From Escherichia phage SF, in the sequence record MH359124: DNA of 64,000 nucleotides; one strand, written 5' to 3'. The notes below the pieces were generated by a model, which saw only the letters and a program-made list of their open reading frames with translations, made no database searches and was not told where the DNA came from. How positions within the stretch are numbered: position 1 is the stretch's first letter; each line of letters starts with the position of its first letter. The translations under genes and the position numbers were made by a program. Positions 4,012 through 58,415 of this stretch are shown piece by piece.

Positions 4012-4638
4012 ATGTACAAATATACGTTTACCGTACGTTTAGGCGATAAAGAAGTGAATTGTAGAGCCTTTACTTTAAAAGAATATTTAGGACTCATTGG
4101 TGCGCGGGCTACCGGTACTATTGAATCAGCAGTGAACAATATTATCACTAATTGCTCTAACGCTAAAAACTTGACTAAACAAGAAGCCGAGCTATTGTTG
4201 GTAAATCTGTGGGCACATTCATTAGGTGAAGTGAATCAAGAACACACCTGGAATTGTTCCTGTGGGCATTCATTTCAAGTCTATATGAATTTATTGCACA
4301 CTCAATTAGATGAACAGGCCGATCCCTGGTATTCGTTCAGTGGTATTAAAATTAAGTTCCGTCAACCTAAATTATTTGACGATAAAAATATCGCATTAAT
4401 GATTGCTTCATGTATTGAGGCCGTTTTTGTCAATGGAGAGTCCATCCCTGTTGAAGATTTAACTGAAGCAGAAATAAACGACCTTTACGGCCTTATAACA
4501 GAAGATGACATGATCAATATTAAAAATCTTTTAGTATCGCCATCAATTTATCTGGCAACCCCTATTAAATGTCCCAAATGTGGGGCGTCACACGTTCACA
4601 CAATACGAGGCCTCAAAGAATTCTTTGAGTTACTATAA
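4012..4638 (+). CDS. 26: gp26 baseplate hub subunit
   Basis: 208-aa ORF (T4 gp26 is 208 aa), RBS AAGGAG upstream, TATAAATA late promoter upstream. Confidence 0.85.
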   Translation: MYKYTFTVRLGDKEVNCRAFTLKEYLGLIGARATGTIESAVNNIITNCSNAKNLTKQEAELLLVNLWAHSLGEVNQEHTWNCSCGHSFQVYMNLLHTQLDEQADPWYSFSGIKIKFRQPKLFDDKNIALMIASCIEAVFVNGESIPVEDLTEAEINDLYGLITEDDMINIKNLLVSPSIYLATPIKCPKCGASHVHTIRGLKEFFELL

Positions 4639-43645: not shown

Positions 43646-44380
43646 ATGGAGCTAATCTTTTTAAGCGGCATCAAACGTAGTGGTAAAGACACTACTGCTG
43701 ATTACATCAATTCAAACTTTAAATCCATAAAATATCAATTAGCATATCCAATTAAAGACGCTCTAGCAATAGCTTGGGAACGTAAACACGCCGAAAACCC
43801 AGATGTATTCACTGAGTTGAAATATGAATACTTTGAAGGCATTGGATACGACCGTGAAACGCCATTAAATCTCAATAAATTGGATGTTATTGAATTATTG
43901 GAAGAAACGCTAATTTATTTACAACGACAATACCTGCCAATTAATGGTGTTAACGTATTATCATCACTAGAAGGTGGATACTCATATCTAGATATTAAAC
44001 CGTACGAAGCCCTGCGTGAAGCTATAAATAATATCAACGACACGTGGTCGATCCGCCGTCTTATGCAAGCCCTCGGTACGGATGTTGTCGTTAATTTATT
44101 TGACCGTATGTATTGGGTTAAGCTTTTTGCATTAAACTATATGGATTATATTGGAAGTGATTTCGATTACTACGTTGTGACCGATACACGCCAAGTCCAT
44201 GAAATGGAAACCGCTAGAGCGATGGGTGCTACAGTTATTCATGTGGTTCGCTCTGGTACGGAATCCACTGATAAACATATTACAGAAGCTGGGTTGCCTA
44301 TTGAAGAAGGCGACTTAGTTATTACAAACGACGGCTCTTTAGAAGAGCTTTATTCTAAAATTGAAAAAATCTTAAGGTAA
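43646..44380 (+). CDS. 1: gp1 deoxynucleoside monophosphate kinase
   Basis: 244-aa ORF with P-loop LSGIKRSGKDTTAD; matches T4 gp1. Confidence 0.92.
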   Translation: MELIFLSGIKRSGKDTTADYINSNFKSIKYQLAYPIKDALAIAWERKHAENPDVFTELKYEYFEGIGYDRETPLNLNKLDVIELLEETLIYLQRQYLPINGVNVLSSLEGGYSYLDIKPYEALREAINNINDTWSIRRLMQALGTDVVVNLFDRMYWVKLFALNYMDYIGSDFDYYVVTDTRQVHEMETARAMGATVIHVVRSGTESTDKHITEAGLPIEEGDLVITNDGSLEELYSKIEKILR

Positions 44381-44384
44381 TAAA

Positions 44385-45070
<686 letters not shown>

Positions 45071-45082
45071 TTTTCAAAAACA

Positions 45083-45118
45083 GTTTACATAAGGATGATG
45101 GCGTGTTACTATCATCCT
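45083..45118 (+). promoter_or_regulatory. early promoter with stem-loop (PeSL-like) for the ipI-locus gene
   Basis: GTTTACA, then inverted repeat AGGATGAT...ATCATCCT enclosing TACTAT. Confidence 0.6.
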
Positions 45119-45146
45119 ATCAAATAAACAACCTCAAGGAAATAAA

Positions 45147-45458
45147 ATGAAAACCTATCAAGAGTTTATCGCTGAAGCTACTAAAGCCGATAAAAATTTT
45201 ATTATTAACACCACCGGTCCGTTAGATGATGAATACGCTAATGCTATTATTAAGTCAATTTCTAATCAAGGCGTTGAAGTAACAAATTTCGAATATAAGA
45301 AAAATGATACTTATATGATAATTAGTATCAAAAAAGGTTCAAAAGCCAAAATTAAATCCGCATTTGGTGTTATGCGAGTTGACCAAATCGATAACCACGA
45401 TTTTTCACAAACAGGGGCCAAACGCCAAAATACCATTTCTTCTAAAGGCATAAAATAA
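45147..45458 (+). CDS. internal protein (ipI locus) with capsid-targeting leader
   Basis: N-terminus MKTYQEFIAEA, the T4 internal-protein capsid targeting sequence; early promoter upstream; position adjacent to 57B. Confidence 0.8.
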   Translation: MKTYQEFIAEATKADKNFIINTTGPLDDEYANAIIKSISNQGVEVTNFEYKKNDTYMIISIKKGSKAKIKSAFGVMRVDQIDNHDFSQTGAKRQNTISSKGIK

Positions 45459-45494
45459 TTTACAACACGATAGGACTATGTTATAATAGTCCTA
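45459..45494 (+). promoter_or_regulatory. early promoter TTTACA-17-TATAAT embedded in a stem-loop (PeSL)
   Basis: aTTTACAacacgaTAGGACTAtgtTATAATAGTCCTAtc: -10 lies in the loop of an 8-bp inverted repeat. Confidence 0.7.
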
Positions 45495-45519
45495 TCAAAA
45501 CAACCAAATGGAACCTAAA

Positions 45520-45783
45520 ATGAAAACTTTCAACGAATTCATCTCAGAATCGTCTGGTGTGAAAATTAACAAAGCGGTCAATCAGGTTATTGCTGATATT
45601 CTTAATTTGTATAACATTGACTTAACTCCGCATATCACGCTTGGTAACAAACGAAACTTTTTCATATTTGACACATCCGAACTTGATGAAAATCAGTTCA
45701 ATAACATTCAACGTTTTGCGAATGATAAAGGTCTTCGACACGAGCCTGGCGGCTATAAAAAATACGCAATATATTTGAAATAA
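45520..45783 (+). CDS. internal-protein-like (CTS variant MKTFNEFISE)
   Basis: Start at ATG 45520; CTS-like N-terminus; PeSL-type promoter-stem-loop upstream. Confidence 0.65.
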   Translation: MKTFNEFISESSGVKINKAVNQVIADILNLYNIDLTPHITLGNKRNFFIFDTSELDENQFNNIQRFANDKGLRHEPGGYKKYAIYLK

Positions 45784-45852
45784 AGGTATACAAGCCTATA
45801 GGGATATGTTATAGTAGTCCTATCAAAACAAATGAGTAAATGGAGAAATAAA

Positions 45853-46038
45853 ATGAAACGCGCTGAACTGATTCGTAATGTTGCTATAGTAATTGCTTCA
45901 ATGGCTTTTAGTTTTTCGATGTTTGTAGGATTCATTTGTGGACTACTGACAACAACTGAAAACTCTATCTCATTGGTAGTAGCATTTCTAATCGGCTTAA
46001 TCGCTATCGTTATGGATAAAATTGCAAAAGGTGAGTAA
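45853..46038 (+). CDS. small membrane protein (2 predicted TM helices)
   Basis: Start at ATG 45853 with RBS GGAG; hydrophobic segments VAIVIASMAFSFSMFVGFICGLL and LVVAFLIGLIAIV. Confidence 0.5.
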   Translation: MKRAELIRNVAIVIASMAFSFSMFVGFICGLLTTTENSISLVVAFLIGLIAIVMDKIAKGE

Positions 46039-46039
46039 A

Positions 46040-46402
46040 ATGAAATATCATGTATATGCGGATTTTGAAGCAAATCCTTCTAAAGACCATGATTGTCGTT
46101 TGATACGCAGACCATTTGATTCAGCAGCTCAAGCATGGGCTTGGATTAAAACTTGTACTCCTTCTTACACTTTCTTTGAAGTGGTAGATGATAACGGTGT
46201 TCTACATCCAGAACCTACAGAAACTATTAATTTCCTTCTGTTTGCTGGTTACGACTGTTATCCTCTTGGCGGTATTGACGATCTTGTTGCTACAGGAAAA
46301 ACTGTTGAAGCTCTTCGTGAAATCTATAAAAATGCTGAAGAAAATTTTGACTGGTACCAGATTGTCAGTGCACATACTTTTGAAGTGGTGGAACACTCAT
46401 GA
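46040..46402 (+). CDS. hypothetical protein
   Basis: ATG 46040 with RBS GGTGAG; 120 aa; no recognisable motif. Confidence 0.6.
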   Translation: MKYHVYADFEANPSKDHDCRLIRRPFDSAAQAWAWIKTCTPSYTFFEVVDDNGVLHPEPTETINFLLFAGYDCYPLGGIDDLVATGKTVEALREIYKNAEENFDWYQIVSAHTFEVVEHS

Positions 46403-46689
46403 TTCTTTATGCTAAAGTAAAATCTGTCGAGAATGGATATGAAAGCGATCAACGTGCAGCTAAAGCACTAGTCGATGACTATGGTATTTTGACTAATTTT
46501 GAAGTTGAAAAGGTTTACATCGACCGTTCGTCTTCACAGGTTAAATTGCTCTGTGAAGATGATAAATTTAACACAGTTAACTTTGATTTCTTTATTGAAA
46601 CAGAAAAAGGCCCTCTTGAATATGATATTTTCAAGAATCCTTTGAAATTACGTTGCATTGAATATAATTACATTAATATGGTACGGTGA
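46399..46689 (+). CDS. hypothetical protein
   Basis: 96-aa ORF coupled to the upstream gene (ATGA overlap). Confidence 0.6.
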   Translation: MILYAKVKSVENGYESDQRAAKALVDDYGILTNFEVEKVYIDRSSSQVKLLCEDDKFNTVNFDFFIETEKGPLEYDIFKNPLKLRCIEYNYINMVR

Positions 46690-46693
46690 TTAA

Positions 46694-47209
46694 ATGAATA
46701 TTTGTTTAGGCAGTACAATTCCTAAAGGTTACGTAATTGATGTCACTACCTATGAAAGTGATGGCGACAATTATAAAACCAAAACATTGTTTGAAGTGGA
46801 AGAGCATGAGCTCCAACAGTTTAAATATCTCTTGAAGAAATTTAAGAGCCGTCATTCTAGCACCAAAGCCGAACGTTATTGCGGTAATACACCATTCGGT
46901 CGTTGTTCGCTTATTATCTACGAATATCTGGTTGAAGGACTGTTCTCAGACCAACTCCAACCGGAATTTATTAAAAAGGTCTTTGGCATCGAAGTAGACC
47001 TTGGTGATAAATCTGAAGAAGACGAAGCCCGCGTATTCGACCTGTTCTTTGTGAAAGGCGGTGAGATATCTCAAGGACTTATTTATATTCTTGGCTATGC
47101 TTCTGAATACTATGATTACGATTTCTTGCGTGTAGTTGAACGTGTCGAATTTGCTTATATTGAAGAAGAAATCGTTTTGCCAACCGTTAAAATGATTGAT
47201 TTGCTTTAA
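46694..47209 (+). CDS. hypothetical protein
   Basis: 171-aa ORF, acidic; no recognisable motif. Confidence 0.6.
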   Translation: MNICLGSTIPKGYVIDVTTYESDGDNYKTKTLFEVEEHELQQFKYLLKKFKSRHSSTKAERYCGNTPFGRCSLIIYEYLVEGLFSDQLQPEFIKKVFGIEVDLGDKSEEDEARVFDLFFVKGGEISQGLIYILGYASEYYDYDFLRVVERVEFAYIEEEIVLPTVKMIDLL

Positions 47210-47288
47210 GAATTATGTGTTATTATTAATTCATACCATCTATTACCAAAGGTGCTCTAAAGTGCCTTTCATAATAGAAAGTTATTTA

Positions 47289-47362
47289 GGCCCTGTAGCT
47301 CAACGGTTAGCAGCAGTCCCCTCATAAGGGAAAGGTTACCAGTTCGAATCTGGTCTGGGTCA
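47289..47362 (+). tRNA. tRNA with anticodon CAT (Met/Ile2 type)
   Basis: Manual cloverleaf: acceptor GGCCCTG/CTGGGTC (one mismatch), D-arm GCTC-AACGGTTAG-CAGC, anticodon loop CTCATAA, T-arm ACCAG-TTCGAAT-CTGGT; 6 nt before the next tRNA. Stems are imperfect. Confidence 0.6.
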
Positions 47363-47368
47363 TATATT

Positions 47369-47445
<77 letters not shown>

Positions 47446-47463
47446 ACTTTAAGTGAGGAAAAT

Positions 47464-47808
47464 ATGAAAGGCAACATTTATCTGGTAGTTCATGATTTAA
47501 CGTTTTATTTTAACGAATATGATACAGTTATTTCTCATCGATTGATTAATTCGCTGTATCAGCATGCCGATTACATCTATGTTCAAAATGAATTTGGTCA
47601 TTGGAAGTTCATTAAAAATCGTTCTGGGTTAACTAGTTTTGAATACTTTGACCGTAAAGACCTTTTAAACGAAATCCCATTGCAACATCGGTTCCAGAAA
47701 CGTGAATCATTATATTATTGCCGCCATATACCAAACGCCGAATGTGTTAATGAAGCGATTAATCTATGGCGTCGGCGTCGAGAGCAAATTGATGATATGC
47801 CAAAATAA
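47464..47808 (+). CDS. hypothetical protein
   Basis: ATG 47464 with strong RBS GAGGAA; 114 aa; the track ORF start at 47416 lies inside tRNA-Arg. Confidence 0.6.
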   Translation: MKGNIYLVVHDLTFYFNEYDTVISHRLINSLYQHADYIYVQNEFGHWKFIKNRSGLTSFEYFDRKDLLNEIPLQHRFQKRESLYYCRHIPNAECVNEAINLWRRRREQIDDMPK

Positions 47809-47959
47809 GAAGCCGGGTCGCTACCGGTAAGTCGTCGGACTGATGTTCCCTGCGTAAGGACTGGTCTTAAATAAATCTTTATGATTTGTTAATATCCCCT
47901 TACATCACAGCAGAAACGGCGCACAGAATTATCGATTCGAGGAAATATCTTTGCCGTAA

Positions 47960-48150
47960 GCCGAGTAGCGTTTTTGACGGAACGTTCGGATATGGTCGAG
48001 ATATGGCCTTTTAAAAATATTGAGTAGCGTCAACTGCTTAATAACCGGGTTCGAATCCCGGCGTTTCGTACAAACACTTGCCTTAGCAGGTGGAACCCCG
48101 ACAAGGTTGCCGCAAGGCATAGCCCCTTCCGAAAGGTTGGGGCTTTTTGG
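47960..48150 (+). ncRNA. candidate small stable RNA with tRNA-like T-arm and terminator (possibly analogous to T4 rnaC/rnaD)
   Basis: 385-bp ORF-free stretch next to the tRNAs; tRNA-like T-arm CCGGG-TTCGAAT-CCCGG (48045..48061) and pairing 7-nt acceptor-like strands; GC hairpin plus T-run at 48121..48148. Boundaries approximate. Confidence 0.35.
48121..48148 (+). terminator. rho-independent terminator (AGCCCC...GGGGCT plus TTTTT)
   Basis: agccccttccgaaaggttggggcttttt at the end of the ORF-free RNA region. Confidence 0.65.
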
Positions 48151-48193
48151 CATAATAATAAATAGATAAGTTAATTAACTTAGGAAAAGCAAA

Positions 48194-48658
48194 ATGAAAT
48201 CATACGCCGAATTTTTGACTGAACAATCTAGTTCAGATGTAAAAGCCGCTGCGATTGCAGCAATTCAAGCAGGTAAATATTCTTACAAAGACGCCTCTGA
48301 TGAAGAACGTTTCCGTTTTATTAGAGATTTTAAAGCCGAAGGTTTTACTAATGCTAATACTGTTAGCCGAGTTTTTAAAAGCCTAGCTGCATCAGGTGAA
48401 TTGTTCCAGAAAGCTACAGGTAAAGCACCTGCGCCAAAAGCGGACCCTAAAGCCGCTCAAGAAAAAAATATCGCCAAAGGAATTATTTCTAAGTATGAAG
48501 CAATTCTTAAAGAGCTTTTAGTAATCAAAACAGAAGGCCAGAAACTGGCACGAGCACATAGCTTCAAAGATAATCCTCACGCTCATAGCCTTGAGTATGT
48601 TGAAGATATCCAAAAACTTATTAAAGACCGTATCTGGTCTGCTAAACAAATTAAATAA
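48194..48658 (+). CDS. internal-protein-like (CTS variant MKSYAEFLTE), 154 aa
   Basis: CTS-like N-terminus; flanked by near-identical terminator hairpins. Confidence 0.7.
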   Translation: MKSYAEFLTEQSSSDVKAAAIAAIQAGKYSYKDASDEERFRFIRDFKAEGFTNANTVSRVFKSLAASGELFQKATGKAPAPKADPKAAQEKNIAKGIISKYEAILKELLVIKTEGQKLARAHSFKDNPHAHSLEYVEDIQKLIKDRIWSAKQIK

Positions 48659-48664
48659 TAGAAT

Positions 48665-48691
48665 GCCCCTTCCTTACGGTTGGGGCTTTTT
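48665..48691 (+). terminator. rho-independent terminator after IP gene 48194, near-copy of 48121..48148
   Basis: gccccttccttacggttggggcttttt. Confidence 0.65.
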
Positions 48692-48829
48692 GGTATCTAG
48701 GCCTTTCCGGGAATCTCTAGGCATCATTTAGTTTATACCCTTTATAATAATATATTATCCTACCTTTTAATTGCCTCTCTCTGCCCTAGAATTCCCCGGA
48801 ACTTTTTAAAAATTTTTTTTCACAAAACT

Positions 48830-48859
48830 GTTTACATCCCTGTTCTTCCGTGGTACTAT
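48830..48859 (+). promoter_or_regulatory. early promoter GTTTACA...TACTAT
   Basis: ctGTTTACAtccctgttcttccgtggTACTATac upstream of ORF 48902. Confidence 0.55.
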
Positions 48860-48901
48860 ACAACTATCAACTACCGATACAGAAAAAACTTGGAGAATGA
48901 A

Positions 48902-49165
48902 ATGGATAATTACGGCGAACTGTTCAACTTCTTTATGAAATGTGTTCCAGAAGATTTCGGACGTACGGTGAATGATATTAAAGTTATCGGTCCTGAACAC
49001 CCTGTGTATGAAACCTATGCAGTAATGGGTAATGAAGACGGACAGTGGTATACAATTAAAGTTGTGATTAATATGTTCTCGGCCGAAGGCTACGCCAAAT
49101 CGTCTACCAAAGTTTACCATGATAACGATTTTGATGCGGAAGATTATTTCAATAATATGAAATAA
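48902..49165 (+). CDS. hypothetical protein
   Basis: ATG 48902 with RBS GGAG; early promoter at about 48830..48859. Confidence 0.55.
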   Translation: MDNYGELFNFFMKCVPEDFGRTVNDIKVIGPEHPVYETYAVMGNEDGQWYTIKVVINMFSAEGYAKSSTKVYHDNDFDAEDYFNNMK

Positions 49166-49223
49166 ATGTGTACATGGGCTCATGATTAAGATATTATGAG
49201 CCCTATTAATGAGAAAGAATGTT

Positions 49224-49529
49224 ATGAGTCTTTATACTGAACTGAATAAAAAATCTGAAGAATCTGCTGAAACTATTTTTAAAAACGTGCAAAAGCGTAT
49301 TTTAGAAAAGATGTATAACACTGCAGCTAAAGGTGAAAAATCTTGCCGGTTTCCGATGAGGTGTTCTTCTGATTTATGCGCAAATACTATTGAATGGCTG
49401 GAAAGTGAAGGTCTTACGGTAGAGAAAAACCCGGCGACTTCTATTGACAGTGAATCATATATTAGTATTTCTTGGGATAAACCACGTATTAATGAAGGAC
49501 ACTACAAGTTGTTGAGTTGGAAAAATTAA
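49224..49529 (+). CDS. hypothetical protein
   Basis: ATG 49224 with RBS GAGAAAG. Confidence 0.55.
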   Translation: MSLYTELNKKSEESAETIFKNVQKRILEKMYNTAAKGEKSCRFPMRCSSDLCANTIEWLESEGLTVEKNPATSIDSESYISISWDKPRINEGHYKLLSWKN

Positions 49530-49537
49530 AATAATGA

Positions 49538-49566
49538 TGTACAAGCACCAAAGATGGTGATACTAT
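49538..49566 (+). promoter_or_regulatory. early promoter for ORF 49596 (leader duplicated at 12690..12731)
   Basis: tgatactatagacttatcaactacagaggag shared with the 12732 upstream region; -35 is TGTACA here. Confidence 0.55.
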
Positions 49567-49595
49567 AGACTTATCAACTACAGAGGAGAAACAAA

Positions 49596-49823
49596 ATGGC
49601 TACAGTTAGTATTGATGTCGTTGATTATGAATACACTGAAGAAGTTATTCGCAACCGTCACCCTGAAGTTCGTATCGATTCAGTCCAAGATTCCAAGTTC
49701 TGGACAACTGAGCTTAATCTGAGTGGTCCTTATGAAGCTGTTAAGAAGTTCATGGTTGAAGAATACTGTGAAGGCATGCACCCGGAAGACGCCGAGTTTT
49801 ATGTCAATTTGATTAAAAAATAA
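49596..49823 (+). CDS. hypothetical acidic protein (75 aa)
   Basis: RBS GAGGAG; promoter and leader nearly identical to the one upstream of 12732. Confidence 0.6.
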   Translation: MATVSIDVVDYEYTEEVIRNRHPEVRIDSVQDSKFWTTELNLSGPYEAVKKFMVEEYCEGMHPEDAEFYVNLIKK

Positions 49824-49893
49824 TTTACAAACTCTTGAGAGCAGAGTATAATGCTCTCATTGGATAATAAACCACCAATTGAAAGGTAATAAT

Positions 49894-50487
49894 ATGAACA
49901 CACTGAAGAAACTTGTTGAATTCATCCGCACTAAACTGGGTACTGCTATGGCTAAAAATCTAACTGTCGAAGAACAGTATAACGCAGCTGCAGATAAGTT
50001 GATTACCCAAATCAAAGAACTAAAAACGGCTTCTGTTAAATCTATTAATGAAGAAAAACGTATTCGCGAACTTGTTATTGAAAAGAATAAGCAAGCCGCT
50101 TCTAAGGAACGTGAAATTCGTAAGCTCCTGGCTGAAGGACAAGATGTTACCATGCATGCTAAGCTTGGTCTTCTGTATCGTCGAACTGCCGAACAACTTA
50201 ATACAAAAGCTGATGGGTATGCCGCTATGCGAATTGAAATTGCTCGTAAGGTGGTTGAACTTGACGACGCTCGTCAGAATCTGGCAATCAAACTCGAATA
50301 CATTCGTGAAACTCGAGCAGCTAATGCCCTTGGTATCTCTACGGCCGATGATGTAATTGAAATCGCTGCACTGACTAAGGTTGATATCGAAGACACTCTG
50401 ACTCGTGTTGAAACGTTCAATGGCACTCCAACCGGTGTCGAAACCACTTCTGCTGATGTACAAGAATATATTAACTCTTTGAAATAA
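49894..50487 (+). CDS. coiled-coil protein (possibly PspA/IM30-like; weak inference)
   Basis: ATG 49894 with RBS AAAGG; 198 aa, predominantly helical and charged heptad-like; hairpin terminator follows. Confidence 0.6.
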
Positions 50488-50495
50488 AATAATAC

Positions 50496-50517
50496 GGAGG
50501 ACTCCGGTCCTCCTTTT
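50496..50517 (+). terminator. rho-independent terminator after ORF 49894 (GGAGGAC-tccg-GTCCTCC plus TTTT)
   Basis: Perfect 7-bp stem and T-run. Confidence 0.65.
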
Positions 50518-50536
50518 GGATAATAAAGGAGTTAAC

Positions 50537-51133
50537 ATGCGAAACCAAAATAATGATATTGACTCGATGTTCGAAGAGTTCCGAAATAAGGTAAATCCAC
50601 CTACGTCTTTAGTTGATTCATTACGATATGTTGCAACTGGACGTAAATGGTACTGGTCGTCTTCTTATGAGACAACTGAATATGCAAATAACCGAAAATC
50701 TTTATTAGCCCCAGGTATTATGATTCATGATATCGGAGCTATTGCTAAACTAGTTGCAGACCATGATATTAGATTCACCGATTTCGTTGCTCCTACGTGG
50801 TCTGTTTGTTGTTTAAACACTGAATGGGAATATATCAGCGAACGCTCTGAAGATTATTATGGTTTTAGAGACAAGCTTTTAAGGTCTAACATGTTTTATA
50901 TTGATACAGAAGTTCTGGTCAATAATAAAAAATACTATTTCACTTTAATAGTCGATTCTGAAACTATGTATGAAGGCAAGCCTTTGCTTAAAAGAGTTGA
51001 TGCTTTAAGTGCTATTGATGCGCTTTATGAAACCATGGTTGTTAGTCCTAATTTCACTAACAATTTAATCCTTGAGCAATTTATTATGGAATGTAGAGAA
51101 TATGTCAAAGCCAACCCTATACATGCCAAGTAA
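50537..51133 (+). CDS. hypothetical protein (199 aa)
   Basis: ATG 50537 with RBS AAGGAG; C-terminal region contains the FIMECRE junction motif. Confidence 0.65.
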   Translation: MRNQNNDIDSMFEEFRNKVNPPTSLVDSLRYVATGRKWYWSSSYETTEYANNRKSLLAPGIMIHDIGAIAKLVADHDIRFTDFVAPTWSVCCLNTEWEYISERSEDYYGFRDKLLRSNMFYIDTEVLVNNKKYYFTLIVDSETMYEGKPLLKRVDALSAIDALYETMVVSPNFTNNLILEQFIMECREYVKANPIHAK

Positions 51134-51497
51134 GCCCTGGGCGTATGAATACAAGCGTAAATTAATCCCAAATGAAGTACTATTTGGCCCTATTTTAGCT
51201 TTAGCATTTTTAATCTTTATGATTATAGGAGCTGTTTTAGATTCTAGTGAAGTTATATCGTCTGATGCAGTGTTTTTACTTATTATAGTCGGGTCGTTTA
51301 TTGTACCATTTTTATTAATGCCTATTAACTGGGTAGGATATTGGCACCAAGGCCGTCATCACAGAGCCCGATTAAGAGAATGGAAAGTTCAGTGCGCAAA
51401 AGCCCAAGCTCAGTATGATGAAGCTGTTAAAAAGTACGAATATGAAGAAGCTATGGAATTCGTTAAGGAAATAAGATGCAAAAGCCTCAACTCTTAA
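51102..51497 (+). CDS. small membrane protein (2 TM), ECR-family paralog
   Basis: Start at 51102 (alternative 51123); TM segments ILALAFLIFMIIGAVL and VFLLIIVGSFIVPFLL; C-terminus EFVKEIRCK. Confidence 0.6.
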   Translation: MSKPTLYMPSKPWAYEYKRKLIPNEVLFGPILALAFLIFMIIGAVLDSSEVISSDAVFLLIIVGSFIVPFLLMPINWVGYWHQGRHHRARLREWKVQCAKAQAQYDEAVKKYEYEEAMEFVKEIRCKSLNS

Positions 51498-51835
51498 CCG
51501 TATGGCCTTCTCTTGGTGAGAACATTCTAATTTTTATTATGAGTATTGGCGTGGGATTTGCCTTTGGATTAGTTGGATTTCTTATTGACGGCGTTGTGTT
51601 AGGATTTATAGGGAACACTGGTGGATTCACAGACCAATGGCAGGACTTACGGTATACCCAAGCCTTTGCATCCATCGCATCATTTTGTACTGTAGTCTAT
51701 TTTTACTATGATTTTATAAACCATAACAAGAAAAATAAAAAGGTTTACGCTTCTCAAATGATTAGTTATAATGAACTCCTAGCTAGACGTGAAAATGAAA
51801 CAATAGAAAACTTTATTAAGGAATGTAGAAAATGA
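51476..51835 (+). CDS. small membrane protein (2 TM), ECR-family paralog
   Basis: TM segments; C-terminus ENFIKECRK; coupled to the downstream gene. Confidence 0.65.
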   Translation: MQKPQLLTVWPSLGENILIFIMSIGVGFAFGLVGFLIDGVVLGFIGNTGGFTDQWQDLRYTQAFASIASFCTVVYFYYDFINHNKKNKKVYASQMISYNELLARRENETIENFIKECRK

Positions 51836-52137
51836 GTAAGATTATTGAAATTAAAGTACCAGAGTTTAATGATGCCAAATCCGCTTCAGATGCAATTTAT
51901 AAACTTCTGAATCAAGCTGAACGTATCGAAGAAGAAGCAACAAAGATCGCAGACCAATATGCCGTATCATTTTCTGTAGGTGATTATGGTAGCGGTCGTA
52001 CTTATTATCCTAAGGGTGAAATCGTATCCCAGTGGATGAAAAATGAAATTGAAAATAATGGTGGCGATGTTAAGCGTGAAGGTAATGGTTACGTTATTAC
52101 TGAAGGTGCTTGGGTTTCGTCTTCTGCGTTGTGCTAA
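51832..52137 (+). CDS. small protein, member 1 of a tandem paralog triplet (C-terminus GAWVSSSALC)
   Basis: 101 aa; shares C-terminal G-W-[VI]-[SA]-S-S-x-x-C and upstream spacer GCTAAGGAA with the next two ORFs. Confidence 0.65.
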   Translation: MSKIIEIKVPEFNDAKSASDAIYKLLNQAERIEEEATKIADQYAVSFSVGDYGSGRTYYPKGEIVSQWMKNEIENNGGDVKREGNGYVITEGAWVSSSALC

Positions 52138-56181: not shown

Positions 56182-56670
56182 ATGAATATATTTGAAATGC
56201 TTCGTAATGACGAAGGTCTTAGACTGACTTTATACAAAGACACTGAAGGCTTTTGGACGATTGGCATAGGCCATTTAGTAGCAAAGAACCCATCTTTAGC
56301 CGTAGCTAAAGCTGAACTTGACAGAATGATCGGACGTAAATGCGACGGTACAATTACCCTTGATGAGGCTGAAAAGCTATTTAATGAAGACGTTGATAAA
56401 GCTGTTCGCGGAATCTTGGGTAATGCTAAACTTAAACCGGTATATGATTCTTTAGATGCAGTTCGTCGATGTGCGTTGGTCAATATGGTCTTCCAAATGG
56501 GTGTAGCAGGCGTCGCTGGTTTTACTAATTCTCTTCGTATGCTTCAACAGAAACGTTGGGACGAAGCGGCAGTAAATCTAGCCCAATCTAAATGGTATCG
56601 TCAGACACCTAATCGCGCGAAACGCGTAATCTCAACATTTAAAACAGGAACTTGGAAAGCGTATATATGA
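56182..56670 (+). CDS. e: lysozyme (endolysin e)
   Basis: [32 protein letters not shown]...[19 protein letters not shown]...[16 protein letters not shown], near-identical to T4 lysozyme; RBS GGGAGG. Confidence 0.97.
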
Positions 56671-56948
56671 AAACATATAGTGAATTTTTATCAGAATCTA
56701 TTCTTAACGAAGCTACTGACACCTTTGCAACTAAGCTAGGTGCAGCTTTGGTTGAAGCCGAAAGTCTATTAGCACGTATTTCTGAACTTGCTAGTAAGAT
56801 AGATACTCGCAAATTTGAACGTACAAGCGATATCGTTAAGCTTGAAGCCTTGTTGCGTATGTGCGATAAACCGGAAGAAATCGCCAAGAACGGTTCGCTG
56901 ATGAAACAACGTCTTGAAAAATATATTTCAGGCGCTTCAGAAAAATAG
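56667..56948 (+). CDS. internal-protein-like ([14 protein letters not shown]), 93 aa
   Basis: CTS leader; ATGA coupling to e; at the T4 ipIII position. Confidence 0.7.
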
Positions 56949-57511: not shown

Positions 57512-57814
57512 ATGAAAACATATCAAGAATTTATTACCGAAGCGCGAGTGAGTGCAGGTAAATTAGAAGCCGCTATAAATAAAAAGGCCCATTCATTTCA
57601 CGATTTGTCCGATAAAGACCGTAAGAAACTTGTAAGCCTTTATATTGACAAAGAGCGTATTCTCGCTCTTCCTGGCGCTAATGAAGGTAAACAGGCCAAG
57701 CCTTTGAATGCTGTCGAAAAGAAAATTGATAACTTTGCTTCTAAATTCGGTATGTCTATGGATGACCTTCAGCAAGCGGCTATCGAAGCAGCTAAAGTAA
57801 TTAAAGGTAAATAA
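57512..57814 (+). CDS. ipII: internal protein (ipII-like, 100 aa)
   Basis: MKTYQEFITEA CTS; 100 aa matches T4 IPII length; early promoter upstream. Identity as IPII versus another IP is uncertain. Confidence 0.7.
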   Translation: MKTYQEFITEARVSAGKLEAAINKKAHSFHDLSDKDRKKLVSLYIDKERILALPGANEGKQAKPLNAVEKKIDNFASKFGMSMDDLQQAAIEAAKVIKGK

Positions 57815-58085: not shown

Positions 58086-58415
58086 ATGAAAACATATCAA
58101 GAGTTTATCACTGAAGTTACATTATCTGCGGAACAGAAAGCTGCTATCGAAGAAGGTAAAAATCCCAAAGTAACATATAAAGTAAATAGTAAAGGCGTTT
58201 TTGATGGCTTGGTTCAAGACCCTGAATTGAAAAAAGCTCTTTCTAAAACTAATGCGTACTTTGCTCCTAAATTTAACACAGCCGGTGTACTTATTGGATT
58301 GGATGTATTCAACTCTAAAGGTGTTCTATCTAATGCCTTTGGTTATGCCGCTAACAAAATTACTAAAGCCGCATGGGAATCCAATACCAAACAAGCTCAA
58401 AAGCCTAGAGTATAA
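58086..58415 (+). CDS. internal-protein-like (CTS MKTYQEFITEV), 109 aa
   Basis: CTS leader at the internal ATG of ORF 57975..58415; flanked by paired ~100-bp direct repeats. Confidence 0.75.
   Translation: MKTYQEFITEVTLSAEQKAAIEEGKNPKVTYKVNSKGVFDGLVQDPELKKALSKTNAYFAPKFNTAGVLIGLDVFNSKGVLSNAFGYAANKITKAAWESNTKQAQKPRV

Follow-up and report, generated by a model that had tools for sequence, protein, structure and literature searches.

Gene cassettes with internal protein-type leaders, probably exchanged through a repeated terminator, between rnaC and e.8 of a T4-like phage

Two described systems come closest to the locus reported here, which lies between the rnaC homolog and the e.8 homolog in a 64,000-nt stretch of Escherichia phage SF (sequence record MH359124; hereafter the window, with positions counted from its first letter and features on the + strand unless stated otherwise). 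According to accounts citing Repoila et al. (1994), the T-even phages have two internal protein (IP) loci, ipI and ipII/ipIII downstream of e, and conserved flanking signals were proposed to mediate their shuffling (Repoila, Tetart, Bouet and Krisch 1994, EMBO J 13:4181, as related in PMC4122927, PMC3012670 and PMC12373910), while the Ip1, Ip2 and Ip3 proteins of T4 are injected inhibitors, each of different GmrSD-type restriction enzymes (PMC12373910). The second system comprises the promoter-early and promoter-middle stem-loops (PeSL and PmSL), which are terminator-promoter units that flank accessory open reading frames (ORFs), recombine and yield mini-circles (Arbiol et al. 2010, PMC2839356; Comeau et al. 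2014, PMC4122927); they are proposed to move when the copies on either side recombine, a mini-circle being excised and then reintegrated (PMC2839356). We consider it probable that the interval from rnaC to e.8 is a hyperplastic site of IP cassettes exchanged via terminator repeats, and that a palindrome-like inverted repeat next to it is incidental.

The window carries a single such cassette, here called cassette A, with an IP-like gene of 154 amino acids (aa) at 48194-48658. The gene is flanked by terminator 1 (48122-48150), consisting of a hairpin at 48122-48143 (GCCCCTTCC-GAAA-GGTTGGGGC), a T-tract at 48144-48148 and GG, and by terminator 2 (48665-48693), with a hairpin of the same stem and a TTAC loop at 48665-48686, a T-tract at 48687-48691 and again GG. 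Together they form a 32-nt direct repeat (48122-48153 and 48665-48696) with 28/32 identical positions; of the four mismatches, three fall within the hairpin loop (GAAA against TTAC) and the fourth immediately 3' of the T-tract. The 29-nt terminator pattern occurs exactly twice in the window, against 0.00 occurrences expected from shuffles. The near-copy terminators that the initial annotation had placed on either side of the gene are therefore real repeats. Folded with their U-runs, the hairpins reach -18.4 kcal/mol (z -2.8) for terminator 1 and -16.3 kcal/mol (z -3.1) for terminator 2; both have GC-rich stems followed by five T residues, and both are predicted to be intrinsic terminators. Each stem has a 2x2 U.U internal loop, because of which a simple terminator scan missed both copies and because of which they are weaker (-16 to -18 kcal/mol) than the perfect stem of T4 (-21.6 kcal/mol), where the homologous hairpin is annotated as a potential terminator (X03016). 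Terminator 1 is both the end of the tRNA/rnaD/rnaC unit and the left joint of the cassette, and terminator 2 is its right joint.

We compared this interval in approximately 40 related loci from GenBank phages, IMG/VR (10 loci) and metagenomes (8 loci), cited below by number (L) where needed; a 20-mer scan of IMG/VR (4 stretches) added no contigs, the four contigs being already in the set. T4 aligns to window positions 47803-48153 and 48665-49200, and its single terminator matches both window copies, so that T4 is without exactly the gene and one repeat. Four states of occupancy were found. The slot is empty in T4, T2, T6, PST and phiEC1 (distance from rnaC to e.8 ~225-234 nt), holds cassette A only, with a 154- or 157-aa ORF, in this window, RB27, fPS-2 and RB68 (~770-800 nt), holds cassette B only, with a 187-aa ORF and the leader MKTYAEFLTE, in RB69 and EP01 (~911-924 nt), and holds A and B together in PhAPEC2, phiC120, HP3 and BW-1 (~1400-1480 nt); in L005-L008 the contents are combined differently and include a leader-bearing ORF of 205 aa and a membrane ORF. 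The joints are identical in all four states and fall at the T-tract of the terminator: what comes after GGGGCTTTTT is GG-TATAAATA in cassette A, AG-TTTGAATCAC in cassette B and GG-TATCTAGG in the spacer, and the terminator that closes cassette B differs in its stem but has the same GGGCTTTTTGGTATCTAGG tail and the same joint. The stem-interior alleles TT, GA and AG/TAG are each found at left and at right terminator positions in different phages, a pattern to be expected if exchange takes place within or between the repeats. The clean indel relative to T4, the four states and the T-tract joints agree with the earlier suggestion, made from the window alone, that the gene had come in by recombination between terminator repeats.

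Two loci of this set have rearrangements of their own. In vB_Eco_F26 (L045), one of the few records with two BLAST places for the spacer, the cassette B terminator and the start of the spacer are present twice, ~350 nt apart, which looks like a local duplication in the slot. In JM10 (L047, 2255-2400) an IP protein 100% identical to that of the window is followed by a near-identical terminator 2 with the loop TTAT, and, after GGTATCTAGG, by another early promoter with the gene that follows; spacer and e.8 are both gone, and the joint lies just 3' of the first TCTAGG.

The description of the gene as IP-like is borne out by its leader, MKSYAEFLTE; T4-type IPs carry N-terminal capsid-targeting leaders of ~10-11 residues, of the MKTYQEFIAE type. 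The regular expression MK[ST][YF].[EQ]F[ILV].[ED], applied to all ORFs of at least 50 aa in the window, returned only six ORFs, the cassette A gene among them. The other five share the form MKT[YF].EF[IL].E and lie at the two classical IP loci, i.e. 45147-45458 and 45520-45783 at the ipI position, and 56667-56948, 57512-57814 and 58086-58415 at the ipIII/ipII position; four of the five belong to PHROG families annotated as internal head or virion protein. The leader ORF at 58086 is in phrog_3966, which is annotated with unknown function only. The same leader recurs in the slot itself, where the ORFs of the 153/154/157-aa family and those of 187 and 205 aa all start with MK[ST]Y..FL..E, the exception being a predicted membrane ORF of 184 aa.

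The prohead protease (gp21) recognises the cleavage motif (L/I)-x-E, and L8-T9-E10 of the cassette A protein aligns with I8-A9-E10 or I8-T9-E10 of the IPIII- and IPII-like ORFs in the window. The cassette A leader appears to end in this motif, and cleavage is predicted there; the mature protein has an isoelectric point of ~9.6, and we infer that it is packaged in the capsid and injected. Its gene is present in 510 phage records, with one copy in each, and the protein falls in phrog_2280 (unknown function). An AlphaFold (AF2) model with a pLDDT of 76 is all-alpha, with a Pro/Lys-rich linker between two helical parts; searched against PDB and BFVD it gave no significant match beyond its own family, only ferritin-like helical noise (E >0.3), and there was no match to the protein in Pfam or NCBIfam. 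A homologue search with the protein returned 10 clusters only, all unnamed or hypothetical. Truncated forms were also seen: the 157-aa IP-like gene is reduced to 97 aa in teqhal (L023) and PsgM02F (L028), and similar truncated forms of 93-111 aa are present in the protein database (clusters P0007-P0009), which suggests that the gene is decaying in some lineages.

With regard to expression, AATAAATA is located at 48157-48164, 30 nt 5' of the ATG, with the AT-rich GATAAGTTAATTAA directly downstream. It differs from the 8-bp T4 late-promoter box, TATAAATA, in having A at position -13, and A(-13) is the commonest variant among the T4 late promoters listed in PMC2988020 (9/50); the box is therefore a putative late promoter, predicted to fire late. 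Most relatives have GG-TATAAATA directly after the terminator T-tract, then a Shine-Dalgarno sequence and the ATG, while in the window and in its Mosigvirus relatives CAT(AAT)nAAATAG replaces the canonical GG-TATAAATA of Tequatrovirus, and the AATAAATA box lies within this tract. The tract (window 48151-48165) varies in length among relatives: L009 has a single (AAT) unit (n=1), the window, PhAPEC2 and phiC120 have two, and L013 has three. The Shine-Dalgarno-like AGGA (48182-48185) is 8 nt 5' of the ATG, and AGGAAA is conserved in relatives at this place. No early promoter of the form TTTACA-N17-TAnnAT was found behind terminator 1, where the late-promoter box stands instead. Cassette A would thus be a self-contained late transcription unit, made up of a predicted promoter, a ribosome-binding site, the leader ORF and a terminator. 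Upstream of the leader ORFs at 45147, 45520 and 57512 there are early-type TTTAC-N17-TAnnAT promoters, instead of the late box of cassette A.

These features can be combined in a model in which the stretch from rnaC to e.8 would be a hyperplastic slot for self-contained IP expression cassettes, each with a late promoter, a Shine-Dalgarno sequence, an ORF with an IP capsid-targeting leader and an intrinsic terminator. The ~30-nt terminator hairpin and T-tract, repeated at every cassette boundary, would supply the homology on which general recombination or replication slippage may delete, insert or swap cassettes, either within one genome or between co-infecting phages, and the neighbouring transcription units would stay intact. 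The window would then hold one cassette, A with its 154 aa, and what remains of the spacer would be ordinary inter-unit DNA, namely terminator 2, an untranslated pyrimidine-rich stretch, an UP tract and the e.8 early promoter. The exchange is probably the work of homologous recombination and not of a dedicated enzyme; the direction of each single event, gain or loss, is not readable from these comparisons.

As with the T-even IP loci, the slot contains small non-essential ORFs which share only an N-terminal capsid-targeting leader, the number, order and identity of the ORFs vary between close relatives, and conserved transcription signals flank them. Unlike those loci, cassette A occupies a third site, the interval from rnaC to e.8, in a window which also has both classical loci, and the cassette families (phrog_2280) are annotated as hypothetical only. 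The slot likewise resembles PeSLs: a conserved stem-loop terminator marks the borders of accessory ORFs in a hyperplastic region, and close relatives differ by indels and replacements whose breakpoints fall within the element. In the L005-L009 type there is even a canonical PeSL at the same locus, in which this terminator stands directly next to the early promoter of e.8. The slot differs in that the repeated unit in the window consists of the terminator and T-tract only, that at the left joint this unit runs into a late promoter (TATAAATA or AATAAATA) and not into an early or middle one, and that terminator 2 stands ~137 nt away from the e.8 early promoter and so does not form the early-promoter unit of a PeSL. 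The locus may best be called a PeSL analogue made of a terminator and a late promoter, a combination which is not mentioned in PMC2839356 or PMC4122927.

Several points weigh against this explanation. The repeat is the terminator alone and not the terminator plus early promoter which defines a PeSL, and 30 nt of homology is short for efficient homologous recombination. Every database name for the cassette A family is "hypothetical protein" or unknown function, and A and B are unrelated by BLASTP beyond the 10-residue leader, though both match phrog_2280; since they share only the leader, "IP" denotes a leader-defined class here and not a homologous family. The model also leaves out the conservation of a 39-nt core of the spacer (48722-48760), which is about that of first and second codon positions. 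Finally, the changes private to this phage in the two arms of the inverted repeat (48705-48721 and 48785-48801) both raise pairing, as selection for a structure in this one lineage might do; since the region was picked for looking palindromic, such apparent gains are subject to ascertainment bias.

The comparisons support the view that the cassette is a further instance of the known T-even IP/PeSL-type genome plasticity. A bolder proposal, that the slot is an unrecognised third T-even IP locus with late-mode PeSL analogues, that the 154/157-aa and 187-aa proteins are injected inhibitors of host defences and that the 39-nt core is cis-regulatory, is put forward as tentative, and as a whole we think it somewhat doubtful. 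Both protein families are annotated only as hypothetical in ~500 genomes, and the slot thus flags two candidate injected protein families in hundreds of T4-like genomes; each extra IP family is a candidate inhibitor of a host defence still to be matched. With all four states in existence, the slot also offers an unusually clean natural example of cassettes being gained and lost by way of a repeated terminator. The PeSL mini-circle model could be tested on it, and in the engineering of T4-like phages it could serve as a safe site for insertions.

The spacer on the right of the cassette had been annotated as ORF-free, and there is indeed no credible ORF at 48659-48901: all frames are closed by stops, and a 17-codon ORF on the minus strand is not conserved. 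The spacer ORFs annotated in PsgM02F and HP3 look like artefacts. The spacer is not featureless, however, as it contains terminator 2, the e.8 early promoter and the 5' untranslated region (UTR). Alignments were made with 21 spacers at first and later with 30 distinct ones. A mobile element of the kind of a miniature inverted-repeat transposable element (MITE) was considered and rejected for the spacer, which, like its core, is present in a single copy per genome (517 records).

One part of the spacer is C-rich and G-poor (48760-48839, ~22 C and 6 G in 80 nt), which by composition resembles a Rho-loading (Rho utilisation, rut) site, although composition is a heuristic only. Such sites are unstructured and often C-rich. 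The spacer might be an insulator, in which C-rich untranslated RNA (~48722-48840) would serve as a Rho-loading backup behind a leaky terminator and guard the e.8 promoter against read-through from the tRNA operon or the late IP transcript. We consider this unlikely, though not negligible; it is compatible with cassette exchange through the terminators, and would give a role to the spacer and not to the palindrome. With 21-22 C against 6 G, these 80 nt rank at the 99.6th percentile for C minus G in the window, the 6-kb T4 locus peaks at the corresponding spot (homologous stretch ~70.66-70.74 kb, 23 C and 4 G), and a C/G ratio of 4.2-9.3 is kept in all 30 spacers despite their sequence variation. 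Moreover, the spacer RNA is weakly structured and untranslated, and the U.U-mismatched window terminators are, as noted, weaker than that of T4. Rho sites have been described upstream of T4 delayed-early genes (PMC2988021), but no Rho-dependent terminator is described at the equivalent T4 position in the literature cited here. Seven other regions of the window score equal or higher on the + strand, the L005-L009 type has its terminator abutting the e.8 promoter without any such stretch, and PhAPEC2 is without the upstream core part.

The AT-rich core itself (CATCATTTAGTTTATACCCTTTATAATAATATATTATCC, 48722-48760) may, in place of the arms around it, be a cis-acting element, i.e. a protein-binding site or an unrecognised promoter with its TATAAT, a reading to which we attach a low probability. 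In the 30 spacers, 5/39 core columns are variable, compared with 32/58 in the flanks and 41/87 e.8 third codon positions, and the contrast persists when columns with an A/T majority (3/31 vs 21/55) and those with a G/C majority (2/8 vs 22/28 in the flanks) are taken separately; the core is also more conserved than the e.8 promoter hexamer region, and its single copy in 517 records has been mentioned. On the other hand the 30 sequences are related and recombining, and AT-rich sequence may mutate more slowly. The core is dispensable, since PhAPEC2 and JM10 have deleted it and the L005-L009 type is without it, and the window itself has a private 3-nt insertion inside it. As a promoter the core was rejected: the TATAAT is perfect, but there is no -35 and no TGCTT MotA box at a usable spacing, and no late box of the TATAAATA type on either strand, and a consensus promoter scan gave no hit in the core. 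By-eye comparisons of the core with integration host factor (IHF) sites and DnaA boxes were poor. Nor is it among the ~60 mapped T4 middle promoters (PMC2988021), none of which is near T4 70.7 kb, the nearest being at 66724 and 72593.

If the terminators had become alike by convergence on an optimum, or if their hairpin were recognised by a site-specific, integron-like recombinase, the repeats would not reflect homologous exchange, but we regard both as improbable. The joints are remarkably precise and a hairpin is a plausible structure for recognition by a protein, and the choice between homologous and site-specific recombination at PeSLs was left open by Arbiol et al. (PMC2839356, PMC4122927). 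However, the identity of the repeats extends to non-functional detail (the destabilising TT/TT internal loop and the GG[C/T]AT tail), the cassette B terminator still has the same joint with its different stem and shared GGGCTTTTTGGTATCTAGG tail, and none of the neighbouring ORFs is an evident recombinase gene. Microhomology deletions elsewhere in the spacer (TTTCC in PhAPEC2, see below) likewise point to general mechanisms.

The initial annotation had also reported an imperfect palindrome of ~100 bp in the spacer, as a possible replication origin, recombination site or structured RNA. Two complementary arms do exist, TTCCGGGAATCTCTAGG (48705-48721) and CCTAGAATTCCCCGGAA (48785-48801), with eighteen pairs that can form; they are only 17 nt each and 82% complementary, however, and the 63 nt between them are not palindromic. 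Inverted repeats of like quality (17 nt, at most 3 mismatches, loop of at most 100 nt) occur 13 times in the window against 9.2 +/- 2.8 expected from first-order Markov shuffles of the window, which is the frequency of chance. A fold check, which had been proposed for the palindrome, was unremarkable for the RNA of the + strand (z -1.5), the RNA of the - strand (z -1.1) and the DNA (z -1.4).

A lack of conservation had been named beforehand as one point that would refute it, and the palindrome is indeed not conserved across relatives. In the left arm GGGAAT is private to the window, all other aligned spacers having G/A-G/A-G/A-CCT, and in the right arm the window has CCCCGGAAC in place of CCC[C/T]AAAAC; the GGAAC is private, with AAAAC in relatives and an intermediate AGAAC in PhAPEC2. 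No record among 50,697 phage records has a 28-mer in common with either window arm. Most of the inner TCTAGG/CCTAGA pairing is retained, but such variants as exist disrupt pairs and bring no compensating change. Counted across the entire proposed structure, 71.6% of cells are paired, compared with 71.3% in shuffles, changes on both sides were found at 2 pairs (2 cells), a covariation value reached by 256/500 shuffles, and 4/18 pairs form in the window but in few or none of 20 relatives. RNAalifold on the relatives gave only a trivial CTAG hairpin, due to the self-complementarity of CTAG, and the arms are as diverse in nucleotides (0.135-0.146) as the third codon positions of e.8 (0.125). In PhAPEC2 (L002, ~4090-4100), the closest full-length relative, a 62-nt deletion corresponding to window 48709-48770 has removed the left arm and the core; both endpoints fall in a short direct repeat, TTTCC, so that slippage or a microhomology deletion is the suggested cause.

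T4 oriF and oriG consist of a MotA-dependent middle promoter (a MotA box, TGCTT, at -30 and a -10 element) with a downstream unwinding element. The spacer resembles them in its AT-rich intergenic core on the early-transcribed strand, but it has no MotA box and no mapped middle promoter nearby, and it is dispensable in several relatives, and does not belong to this class. Origin features were likewise absent, with no TGCTT/AAGCA in 48694-48830 and no turn in the cumulative GC skew. The inverted repeat is an incidental quasi-palindrome, in which two private dinucleotide changes (CC -> AA in the left arm and AA -> GG in the right) would by chance have lengthened the pairing. Quasi-palindrome template switching and direct-repeat deletions have reportedly been studied in T4 by Ripley and co-workers, and the private tandem substitutions are as might be expected of template switching between the arms, to which we give little weight because the region was picked for its palindromic look. 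The locus is like those T4 mutations in the exact loss of one repeat with the intervening DNA, in the 62-nt TTTCC deletion and in the pairing-raising substitutions; unlike elements proper, repeat deletion and template switching are mutational mechanisms, and their action here is inferred from sequence comparison. That the inverted repeat functions in this phage as an origin, as a cruciform or recombination site, or as a structured RNA is very improbable: its eighteen possible pairs, the rise in complementarity from both private substitutions and the rearrangement endpoints near TCTAGG motifs in PhAPEC2 and JM10 are set against chance-level frequency, z scores of -1.1 to -1.5, no covariation, 4/18 near-private pairs, arms evolving at the synonymous rate, no Rfam match, no MotA-type promoter or skew turn, the ascertainment bias already mentioned and a 63-nt loop which makes cruciform extrusion very unfavourable. 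Without support as a functional element, the palindrome should not be pursued as an origin.

Copies of TCTAGG are present at 48697, 48717 and 48786 (two direct and one inverted) within 95 nt, while CTAG is twofold under-represented in the window (107 observed vs ~221 expected). An enrichment of CTAG in the spacer was considered and rejected, as by our estimate three copies in 95 nt are not significant over all window positions.

The window derives from a T4-like phage of the Mosigvirus type; the 1.4 kb around the locus are ~98% identical to Mosigvirus genomes (PhAPEC2, ST2) and ~84% to Tequatrovirus including T4, and the + strand is in the T4 early-transcription direction. The right-hand neighbour of the slot, the 87-aa e.8 homolog (48902-49165, phrog_2678), is conserved. 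A consensus scan placed its sigma-70 type early promoter at 48831-48859 (TTTACA-17-TACTAT with TG), where the annotation of Yersinia phage fPS-2 also has a predicted early promoter, and an A/T-rich UP-like tract (48802-48829) is found directly 5' of it; diversity across relatives in this promoter and the 5' UTR is low (0.04-0.05).

On the left, the gene order taken from annotated relatives is ipI-type genes, trna.4, trna.3, trna.2, tRNA-Met (47289-47362), tRNA-Arg (47369-47445), an extra ORF, rnaD, rnaC, the cassette locus and e.8. The rnaD homolog (T4 species 2 stable RNA, 47805-47923, coordinates transferred from the T4 annotation) and the rnaC homolog (T4 species 1 stable RNA, 47930-48069, from the T4 alignment and the T4 and RB27 annotations), both with approximate ends and the latter followed by a ~50-nt trailer, are covered by window 47803-48153, which is 91.5% identical to T4. 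An Rfam scan of 44000-52000 (E up to 1) found two tRNAs only, with no match in the spacer and none for rnaC or rnaD. These two (Met and Arg) compare with eight tRNA genes in T4, and the tRNA cluster is highly variable among relatives, segB being present in some and absent in others. The extra ORF between tRNA-Arg and rnaD (47464-47808) encodes an RB69ORF150c-like protein of 114 aa (phrog_3355, annotated with unknown function), at a position where T4 has 1 nt only between tRNA-Arg and rnaD.

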